From: Escherichia phage Bp7
Sequence record: NC_019500.1
Strand: one strand, 5' to 3'
Length of the DNA: 64,000 nt
Within the stretch, counting starts at the first letter, position 1. Every line of letters starts with the position of its first letter. Below the pieces are notes generated by a model, which had not been told where the DNA came from, did not search any database, and was given only the letters and a program-made list of their open reading frames with translations. Shown piece after piece: positions 46,120 through 50,111 of the stretch. The position numbers were made by a program, and so were the translations under genes.

Positions 46120-48429
<2,310 letters not shown>

Positions 48430-48433
<4 letters not shown>

Positions 48434-49248
48434 GGGTTTCTCCTTGGTGCTGGAGGCGCCGGCTCGACAGGCACTGGAATATCTTGTGAATATGTTTGAA
48501 CGGAACTTCCATCCCATTCTTTTTCTTCTACACCTCTAGGAACCACTTCGCTATCAACCGATTCGAAATTACCTTCAGGAGCGAGTTCCTTTGAGTTGGC
48601 AAAGAAATCAAGATAAATGGTTTTAATTTCGCCTTCCATTTCCTTCACAGGAGGATATAACCAACCATTAACCTCAAACATCATAGACCACTCTAAGCGA
48701 CGTCTAGAAGTGGTATCACCTTCTAATTGTTCATCCATTGCTATAGATTGGAACACAATACGGATATCACGGTCAAATTTAATTTCGTTTGTATAGAGTT
48801 CAGTGATAGTTGTATTGAAGTGAGGTTGGAAATAAGGCATAATCTGTTCTACAATTTGGAACATATCATCTTGGGTTCTAGTGTAAATACCCAGTTCGAA
48901 AATCATTTTAACCGGAGTAGGAGAATATTGGCTGACACGCTTACGTGGGTCGCCATTCTCAAATTGAATTTGTGTTCTGTTTTGAAGGGCTGTTTTATAT
49001 TGTGAGTTGTAAAGCATATCAACCATTTGGAGGTTCATACGCGGAAGAACTGTTTCCACTTTAGCTTTTTGTTCGGCCCGTTCTTTAGCTGTCATATTAG
49101 GATTTGGAATATTCTGTACTGCCGTCCATTTACCCAAATTTGCCATAAATCTTTCTTTAGAAGCATACGTAATAGGAACCTTAATAAATTTAAGTCCTGT
49201 ATCTTCTCTTTGGCGCGCTACTTGGACATGGGAAAATAAATCACCCAT
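48430..49248 (-). CDS. 15: Tail sheath stabilizer/completion protein gp15
   Basis: MGDLFSH...; synteny; N-terminal boundary uncertain (see findings). Confidence 0.8.
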
Positions 49249-49337
49249 CAAAACAATGTAGCGACGCAGCGATGAATTGTACCAGTGGCCAAAAATAAAT
49301 CACCTCTCAAAATGGCGCACCATGCGCCATGTATTAT

Positions 49338-50111
49338 TTAATCATCTAAAAAAGCATCATCAAATGCTGTAGGAGGAGCATCCTCTCCTCGTCCATTAAT
49401 TACAACATAAGGATGTACGAATTCCGCCGCTTCAGCATTAATCTCATTGACCTCTTCATATTGAATGTCGGAGATATCAGCCAATCCGTCGATATTCTTA
49501 ACAGGCATTAAATCAAGCTCACTAAACTCAGGGATATTAATACCTTCATTTCTCTGTAATTCAGGGCGAAGTTCTTCACCATTGTAAATGAACTTGGTAG
49601 CGGTGATGCGCCGCTGGACGTTAGCTCCTACTTGATAGAATGGGTCGTAAGGTTGTACCCAGTTAATTTCGAATAGGCTGTTGTCCATTGGGAAATAAAT
49701 CAAATCACCTGAAACAGGTTCAGTGCCATTGCATTGATGTTTAAAAAGGTTAGGGTTAATTGTGATTGTTACTTCGTCATTAACCATCATACCGAACTTA
49801 CTGAAATAAGTATTGTCACCGGAATAACCTTCAAAGGAATCCAAATAACCTGCAAATTTCCAGGCTTTAGTAAATTTGTTCTGAAGGTCTTCGCCAAATA
49901 GCTGGTCTGGATTAACGTATTCACGTGGTATATAATAAAGCTCAATACCACGCATTTGAATAGACTCAGCAACTAAAGCATCAGCCAATGTTTGGGTATT
50001 CTCATGCTTGTAGAAGTTGACGAACGGATTCATTATTTCAGTTTCGTTCGTGTTAGCATAGCCAGTATTATTTTCCAGCTTGGCAAATAAACTCGAATCG
50101 AAAGTAGCCAT
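49338..50111 (-). CDS. 14: Neck protein gp14
   Basis: 257 aa; synteny. Confidence 0.85.

Follow-up and report, generated by a model that had tools for sequence, protein, structure and literature searches.

The 64,000-nt stretch of the Escherichia phage Bp7 genome analysed here (NC_019500.1; "the window" denotes this whole stretch) carries a late structural block of the Dhakavirus type, i.e. of a JS98-like T4-type coliphage, in which wac, gp13, gp14, gp15 and gp16 follow one another on the minus strand in the synteny wac-13-14-15-16-17. The subject of this analysis is the start of gp15, the gene for the tail terminator or tail sheath stabilizer, whose conserved reading frame opens in the window without a canonical start codon and presents ATT where related phages initiate. 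From the comparison with these relatives we infer, with a probability of roughly 0.8, that gp15 starts at this AUU and is produced as a normal protein of 288 residues.

The start region of gp15

The closest record to the window is WG01, with 97.9% identity across 991 nt, and no record in the phage collection searched was identical to it. The proposed full-length gp15 matches the PDB 3J2M/4HUD chains of T4 gp15 (E 1e-100), aligned from residue 1, as well as Pfam family PF16724 (E 2e-100, residues 4-271). The gp15 orthologues of JS98 and WG01 comprise 288 aa and start at an ATG that aligns with the ATT of the window. Coordinates of the features discussed are collected in Table 1.

On the minus strand, the gp15 frame reads TGA TTT ATT TTT GGC CAC TGG TAC AAT TCA TCG CTG CGT CGC TAC ATT GTT TTG ATG, and the sequence that follows the gp14 stop TAA is ATAATAC ATGGCGCAtggTGCGCCAT TTT GAGAGGTGA TTT ATT TTT GGC CAC TGG. 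The original prediction for this locus had proposed that the frame continues upstream of MGDLFS, that it is preceded by TGA without an in-frame ATG or GTG, and that the upstream residues resemble the T4 gp15 N-terminus. All three observations hold on the minus strand: the codons upstream of MGDLFS encode FIFGHWYNSSLRRYIVL, and T4 gp15 begins with MFGYFYNSSFRRYATLMGDLFS in both the PDB chains and the T4 record. No ATG, GTG or TTG is found in frame upstream of the conserved coding sequence, only TTT separates the in-frame TGA from ATT, and from this TGA to the conserved Phe2 no other near-cognate start codon occurs than ATT. What had been overlooked is that this in-frame ATT lies exactly at the start-codon position of the relatives, with a strong Shine-Dalgarno (SD) sequence ahead of it. 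The program-called open reading frame (ORF) for gp15 starts at TTG 49251 (Leu16).

Table 1. Positions of genes and sequence features around the start of gp15 in the window
Feature	Position	Strand	Remarks
gp14, neck protein gene	49338..50111	-	stop TAA at 49340-49338
GC-rich hairpin, 8-bp stem ATGGCGCA/TGCGCCAT, 3-nt loop	49312..49330	-	between gp14 stop and gp15 SD
Direct repeat, upstream copy TTTTGAGAGGTGATTTATTTT	49292..49312	-	T-run, SD, spacer, ATT and TT
Recombinant patch, 96 bp (proposed)	49213..49308	-	ATT-type initiation region and synonymously diverged codons 2-28
SD sequence GAGGTGAT	49299..49306	-	predicted duplex with 16S 3' tail, -13.4 kcal/mol
In-frame TGA closing the gp15 frame	49300..49302	-	two codons upstream of ATT, inside SD
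ATT (AUU), proposed gp15 initiation codon	49294..49296	-	aligns with start codons of relatives
gp15, tail terminator / tail sheath stabilizer, proposed full-length coding sequence	48430..49296	-	867 nt = 289 codons (288 + stop), ATT start
Direct repeat, downstream copy TTTTGATGGGTGATTTATTTT	49233..49253	-	gp15 codons V15-L16-M17-G-D-L-F
Internal ATG (Met17)	49246..49248	-	start taken by gene callers and GenBank annotators
gp16, small terminase gene	47942..48433	-	ATG overlaps gp15 stop (ATGA)

The ATT of the window aligns codon for codon with the ATG of JS98, WG01, IME08, KIT01 and T4 and with the TTG of Kosakonia phage 305. At this position JS98, WG01 and IME08 read AGGAGGTTTG ATG TTT GGA CAT TGG TAT AAT AGT TCG CTA, KIT01, a Dhakavirus carrying an endonuclease gene, reads GAGAGGTGA GTA ATG TTC GGT, and phage 305, for which the TTG start is annotated, reads GGAGGTGA ACA TTG TTT GGC CAC TGG. 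Across the eight codons after the start (codons 2-9), all six nucleotide differences between the window and JS98 are synonymous.

The ATT is preceded by GAGGUGAT, for which 9 pairs with the 16S 3' tail are predicted; the energy of this duplex (Table 1) compares with -11.4 kcal/mol for JS98 and -7.3 kcal/mol for T4. The spacing, GGTGA followed by 3 nt and the start codon, does not differ between the window (ATT), KIT01 (ATG) and phage 305 (TTG). Counted over distinct initiation regions and uncorrected for shared ancestry, the median SD:anti-SD energy is -7.3 kcal/mol for ATG (n=17), about -14 for ATT/ATC (n=9) and -15.2 for TTG (n=5), with a Mann-Whitney p=5e-5 for ATG versus ATT/ATC; across all ATT/ATC alleles the values range from -9.3 to -15.4 kcal/mol. 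Weak gp15 start codons go with very strong SD sequences.

The codons downstream of ATT appear to encode the true N-terminus of gp15, and this part of the protein is conserved. Purifying selection acts on codons 2-16: in the nine ATT alleles taken from phage records, pS is 0.5-1.0, with synonymous sites near saturation, and pN is 0-0.09. Across 46 aligned gp15 proteins with identities as low as 58%, F2, G3, S8, S9 and Y13 are invariant, and conservation reaches at least 90% for M1, Y6, N7, R11 and R12. Even very distant IMG/VR homologues of gp15, with Phe or Leu as residue 17, keep the N-terminal motif MFG.(W/F)YN..(L/I)RR, and the match to Pfam PF16724 already begins at residue 4. No ATT/ATC allele has an interrupted frame, and codon 17 encodes Leu (CTG or CTT) in Merci, KpV477 and P0017, which thus have no internal ATG. 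In an AlphaFold2 (AF2) model of moderate quality, Met17 falls within helix 9-20 (mean pLDDT 67.7; approximately 81 for residues 11-20).

These data bear directly on the alternative that the internal AUG of Met17, or the UUG at Leu16, starts a gp15 that is 16 residues shorter, the FIFGHWYNSSLRRYIVL codons being an untranslated relic. A start at MGDLFS had been considered in the original prediction, ATG is present in the window, the program-called ORF agrees with an internal start, and MX01, ABTNLS3, LC53, phiR1-RT, HMGUkp2, Biddle_MM4, F48, Merci and KpV477 are all annotated from one. A relic would decay, however, and codons 2-16 hold their amino acids. In addition, the internal ATG of the window is preceded by cgctacattgttttgATG, in which no SD sequence is found, as opposed to the 9-pair SD ahead of ATT. 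Given the selection on these codons, the five invariant residues, the Leu17 alleles, the position of Met17 inside the predicted helix and the missing SD at the internal ATG, the truncated reading is contradicted on several sides and very unlikely.

ATT and ATC starts among related phages

Besides the window, ATT occupies the gp15 start position in the phage records of LC53 (Winklervirus), phiR1-RT (Tegunavirus), F48 (Marfavirus), Merci and KpV477 (both Jiaodavirus) and the Klebsiella phages HMGUkp2 and Biddle_MM4, and the window-type ATT allele is carried by MX01 and Salmonella phage ABTNLS3. Protein searches followed by DNA look-ups in public read assemblies added Logan contigs of P0014, P0016, P0017, P0077, P0082, P0104 and P0108, with ATT, and of P0018, with ATC. 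ATT/ATC alleles make up 8 of the 120 best 90%-identity gp15 clusters and represent at least 9 distinct initiation regions from several genera. A canonical in-frame start upstream of ATT or ATC is absent from 13 of 16 alleles; the exceptions are P0017 with an in-frame GTG and P0108 with a distant in-frame ATG, neither of which has an SD, and P0104, in which in-frame starts lie 42-63 nt upstream of ATT inside the region called as endonuclease gene. The alignment with the gp15 5' regions of relatives, which had been suggested as a check, shows the same arrangement together with a conserved upstream coding sequence, rather than relatives that lack such a sequence and start at MGDLFS. The one allele with ATC in place of ATT, on a Logan contig of SRR14654594 (L095), has its start behind the same GGGGGTGGTTT module and reads UAU CUU UGG locally.

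The 68 gp15 loci from IMG/VR start with ATG, except for six with TTG (L015-L018, L020 and L024). Scans of IMG/VR with the ATT-type sequences TTTATTTTTGGNYAYTGGTAYAAY and GGGGTGGTTTATTTTYGG returned no hits or three unrelated chance matches, and nothing was found in a scan of JGI metagenomes for the ATT-type gp15 sequence. A literature search yielded no report of an ATT start for gp15 and no proteomic coverage of its N-terminus.

Many ATT alleles are associated with a homing endonuclease. A mob-like HNH homing-endonuclease gene lies directly upstream of gp15 in LC53, phiR1-RT, F48, Merci, KpV477, HMGUkp2 and Biddle_MM4, and the junction GATTAATGGGGGTGGTTT ATT TTY GG is invariant across these seven phages. 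Among the Logan contigs, the gene accompanies ATT in P0077 and P0104 and is absent from P0014, P0016, P0017, P0082 and P0108 (ATT) and from P0018 (ATC). The mob-like endonuclease gene, of approximately 195 aa, is located between genes 14 and 15 in KIT01, vB_EcoM_005, LC53, phiR1-RT and several Klebsiella phages (coordinates 427-1014 in L086 and 904-1500 in L087). The KIT01 and LC53 proteins share 76% identity, and no Pfam domain was found in two of these mob-like endonucleases. In KIT01 the endonuclease stop overlaps the gp15 ATG (TAATG), and the SD of the window, TGAGAGGTGA, equals the final 10 nt ahead of this stop codon. The spacer between genes 14 and 15 of the window (49297-49337) has no endonuclease gene.

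Every ATT record examined in GenBank/RefSeq (KU878969/NC_031934, OR756449, OP617331, HE956709/NC_019909, PV683292, PP738796, MG746602/NC_048694, OK499981 and KX258185/NC_031087) annotates gp15 from codon 16 or 17 and is 16 residues short; in MX01 the product is named 'hypothetical protein'. This appears to be a systematic error that arises because the true start position is ATT. Other truncated entries possess a normal ATG and SD upstream and are simply mis-called to MGDLFS or MLGDLFS, and are thus not ATT alleles: P0047 (Erwinia phage Cronus), P0094/P0097/P0101 (KMB20, CC31, PG7), P0011, P0040 and P0048. In the P0021 group (MGPLGPLGEIMFGHW...), the gp15 entries reach too far upstream and run through the hairpin, and L027, L030-L034, L096, L097 and L101 are likewise mis-called or over-extended loci. 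The calling of gp15 starts is unreliable in general.

The sequence context of the ATT/ATC alleles also allows a route into gp15 by +1 frameshifting. Here, translation would start in the -1 frame, at the GUG at 49301-49299 in the window or at an AUG or UUG at -13 elsewhere, and a +1 shift on UAU UUU U|GG would give M-I-Y-F-G-H-W, the product carrying the N-terminal peptide MIYFGHWYNSSLR. Of the 16 ATT/ATC alleles examined, 15 have GTG at -7 and 12 have ATG or TTG at -13, UUU_U/C permits P-site re-pairing, and in alleles linked to an endonuclease gene the stop of that gene and the ATG overlap as TAATG, a coupling motif that could tie initiation to endonuclease termination. The frameshift site of prfB is UAU CUU UGA, which the UAU CUU UGG of P0018 resembles; shared with prfB are also a U-rich slippery stretch after an SD-like G-rich element and a short ORF in the -1 frame. 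The differences are nevertheless substantial. The short ORF has no initiation region of its own: GTG is itself part of the SD (GGUG), with GAGAG abutting it and no separate SD, the sequences upstream of the -13 ATG or TTG are not conserved, and the window allele has no -13 ATG. The A-site codon is never a stop but UGG in the window and most alleles and CGG only in phiR1-RT and F48, so that the window offers neither a stop nor a rare codon at this site. Between the SD-like element and the slip codon there are 5-8 nt, compared with 3 nt in prfB; relative to AUU, the element instead has the spacing of an initiation site. Moreover, a TAA 4 nt before ATT closes the -1 frame in P0108 and leaves no frameshift route, and the extra N-terminal residues of a frameshift product are unseen in any ATG or TTG gp15. 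On these sequence grounds +1 frameshifting is unlikely, and only a very small chance is assigned to it; for the endonuclease-linked alleles, with their possible coupling through TAATG, it keeps a slight probability.

Repeat, hairpin and mosaic patch

The original prediction had reported a direct repeat that overlaps the start region. The repeat is present, although its claimed extents of 22-23 nt were one or two bases generous: it spans 21 nt with 19/21 matching positions, contains the exact 13-nt core GGTGATTTATTTT and has a spacing of 59 nt. At three or fewer mismatches, the 64 kb contain no match beyond these two (0.01 expected), and none of 100 shuffled sequences gave two. In effect, the SD, spacer, ATT and TT (GGTGATTTATTTT) reappear 59 nt downstream as the codons GGT GAT TTA TTT T (Gly-Asp-Leu-Phe), and all Dhakavirus relatives conserve this downstream copy as coding sequence. 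The 19/21 match is specific to the allele of the window, MX01 and ABTNLS3; other ATT alleles score 8-15/21 because the internal copy drifts synonymously (GGA GAC CTG TTT) or because the SD differs.

Such a repeat, far beyond chance in the window, could be functional, either as paired recognition sites for a protein or endonuclease or as two initiation regions for long and short gp15 isoforms, the downstream copy containing AUG followed by the SD-like GGUGAU. Besides its restriction to one allele, the frames disagree with this explanation: the 59-nt spacing sets the two copies in different frames, and the AUU that GGUGAU in the downstream copy would serve is out of frame and meets a stop approximately 15 codons later. 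A functional role is therefore highly improbable, and the repeat as such does not appear to be under selection. Of the duplicated translation-initiation region that had been suggested, the upstream copy stands as the initiation region, and the idea of a functional duplication does not. The ATG-type region of KIT01, GGTGAGTAATGTT, matches the internal GGTGATTTATTTT at 10/13 positions, and three substitutions, one of them ATG to ATT, yield the window sequence. Most likely, the repeat is a footprint of how the allele originated, plausibly by a short ectopic conversion or a template switch from the internal copy.

An imperfect palindrome had also been noted at this locus; it is present with an 8-bp stem, and its loop is the 3-nt cca (on the plus strand) and not 'cc'. 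The hairpin at 49312-49330 forms in the RNA fold and is followed only by UUUU and then GAGAGG, and a terminator scan scored it on the opposite strand only. In almost every relative that lacks the endonuclease gene, a GC-rich hairpin lies approximately 15-40 nt upstream of the gp15 start (L009-L037, L090-L100), with sequences that differ by lineage (e.g. GGGCCGCAAGGCCC, CCCGGCTTAGACCGGG and GAGGCTTCGGCCTC), i.e. the element is conserved by position and not by sequence. Its probable role behind gene 14 is to stabilise the transcript or to act in a terminator-like manner. An Rfam search of 48900-49700 with E up to 1 gave no match, and the fold of a 131-nt RNA region was no more stable than that of shuffled sequences (z = -1.0), so that no special structure is proposed apart from the hairpin.

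The initiation region appears to differ from its surroundings in ancestry. Within the patch (Table 1), the window shows 15 mismatches and a 2-nt indel relative to WG01, and elsewhere in 49720-48510 no differences. Compared to MX01, the window has two differences in the patch and dozens in the flanks. Over the 86 nt around the gp15 start, ABTNLS3 shows 100% and MX01 98.8% identity to the window. Because the patch matches MX01 and ABTNLS3 within DNA otherwise identical to WG01, the ATT-type initiation region appears to be a mosaic patch of approximately 96 bp that has moved between Dhakavirus genomes.

The shared patch also disposes of the hardly credible explanation that ATT is an artefact or a defect, namely an indel error in the T5 homopolymer run, as the original prediction had considered, or a start-codon mutation that turned gene 15 into a pseudogene: four instead of five T would bring GTG into frame (GTG ATT TAT TTT GGC) and the window is the sole copy of this exact genome in the data searched, but the same sequence is found in the independently sequenced ABTNLS3 and MX01, more than a dozen other genomes or assemblies have ATT or ATC, some without the T5 run (ATT TTC, i.e. 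TTTTC, or ATC TTT), and gp15 is a hexameric tail terminator (PMC12929629) in plaque-forming isolates, with selection acting on its extension. The T5-run sequencing error was rejected on the grounds of the patch common to MX01 and ABTNLS3 and the recurrence of ATT in other genomes.

Further observations concern the neighbouring sequence. The micro-patch at 48501-48509, near the gp15 C-terminus, reads GGAAGTTCCGTT (Gly-Ser-Ser-Val) in the window and GGTAAGTCCATT (Gly-Lys-Ser-Ile) in WG01 and JS98; the window shares it with MX01 and not with WG01, and it constitutes another very short mosaic segment. In gp16, 22 clustered mismatches to WG01 are found at 48161-48415, after approximately 1.2 kb nearly without differences apart from the two short patches described above, which suggests a recombination boundary near the gp15/gp16 junction. 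The program-called gp16 ORF (47942-48517, minus strand) extends 28 codons further upstream than the homologous start ATG 48433; this longer form is probably not used.

Proposed initiation at AUU: mechanism, parallels and meaning

Several points weigh against initiation at AUU. IF3 discriminates against this codon, so that the yield of gp15 could be low, and the GTG at -7 and the ATG or TTG at -13 of most ATT alleles lie in a frame that allows +1 entry into gp15. The comparison of SD strengths is uncorrected for phylogeny, and the module GGGGGTGGTTTATT is common to several ATT alleles. No ATT allele emerged from the IMG/VR and JGI metagenome scans, all support coming from the phage genome collection and the Logan assemblies.

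Published work bears on how much translation an AUU start could sustain. AUU or AUC starts infC across bacteria and AUU starts pcnB in E. coli, and such starts are repressed by IF3 (PMC5499595). In an E. coli reporter, AUU and UUG were about equally effective and yielded 6-8 times less than AUG; translation from AUU rose 3.1-fold with an A/U-rich enhancer (PMC3592434). gp15 forms one hexameric ring per virion, the tail terminator on which the neck sits (PMC12929629), and a modest yield is therefore plausible. In the proposed mechanism, gene 15 would be intact and initiation at AUU would yield a 288-residue protein starting (f)Met-Phe-Gly-His-Trp-Tyr-Asn. The extended SD GAGGUGAU would place AUU into the P site, with the SD core 6 nt upstream, in the register that KIT01 has for its ATG and phage 305 for its TTG. 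The weak codon may be offset by the long SD pairing, possibly with help from the surrounding U-rich sequence, and only six copies of gp15 would be needed per virion. The ATT-type initiation region would have arrived as a recombination or gene-conversion patch of approximately 96 bp, as one of the ATT/ATC-start gp15 alleles that are spread over several Tevenvirinae genera, many of them endonuclease-linked. We infer this compensation logic, as well as the origin of the patch and of the repeat, from the comparisons described above.

The closest parallel is given by infC and pcnB. As in these E. coli genes, gp15 would use an in-frame Ile codon as start behind an SD, conserved across taxa and with AUU and AUC alternating; the homologous position, the lack of a canonical alternative, the SD distance and the translated downstream codons all point in this direction. 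The expected consequence would be a reduced and IF3-sensitive initiation (PMC5499595, PMC3592434). By analogy, gp15 would be a further, widespread case of a non-canonical start of a kind already known. In contrast to infC and pcnB, gp15 is an essential late structural gene of a lytic phage, ATG, TTG and ATT alleles coexist within genera, an extra-long SD accompanies the weak codon in every case, and there is no evident autoregulatory logic. The TTG-start alleles (phage 305, L015-L018, L020 and L024) share the position, the GGAGGTGA-NNN-start geometry and a similarly strong SD (median -15.2); they differ in being annotated at full length because gene callers accept TTG as canonical. For the patch, a precedent is found in the co-conversion tracts that surround the free-standing homing-endonuclease genes (seg, mob) of T-even phages: here, too, a short patch of clustered, mostly synonymous changes appears to have passed between genomes that otherwise differ, beside a position occupied in relatives by a mob-like HNH endonuclease gene, with the difference that the window has no endonuclease gene at the site. 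Additionally, a T4 rIIB mutant in which AUG was changed to AUA is cited as reducing translation by approximately 85% at 25 C (Belin et al. 1979, cited in PMC5499595). As cited there, it indicates that an AUN near-cognate codon can serve as a start in E. coli infected by T4, although it is a temperature-sensitive laboratory mutation and not a naturally fixed allele with a strengthened SD.

It is possible, though doubtful, that the combination of ATT or ATC with an over-strong SD is a selected design rather than a defect that is tolerated, serving either an IF3-sensitive dosage or timing of gp15 or a cleavage-immune allele of the mob-like endonuclease target. If the former were true, gp15 synthesis would respond to IF3, as in infC, and its stoichiometry or timing would thereby be tuned late in infection. 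In the latter case, the allele would spread via endonuclease-driven gene conversion, with the weakened start codon hitch-hiking or being protective.

Initiation at AUU or AUC is very rare in enterobacterial systems, infC and pcnB being the textbook cases in E. coli, and here it apparently occurs in an essential virion gene. An AUU start of gp15 would characterise a sizeable minority of T4-like phages (8/120 of the best clusters examined, plus the window allele). The short annotation drops part of the first helix and the five invariant residues and thereby provides the wrong protein for expression, modelling and mass spectrometry searches. The coexisting ATG, TTG and ATT alleles would represent a natural series for the study of start-codon/SD compensation and of IF3 discrimination during infection. 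Together, the endonuclease hot spot and the 96-bp patch may exemplify how regulatory sequence is exchanged between phages through very short conversion tracts.

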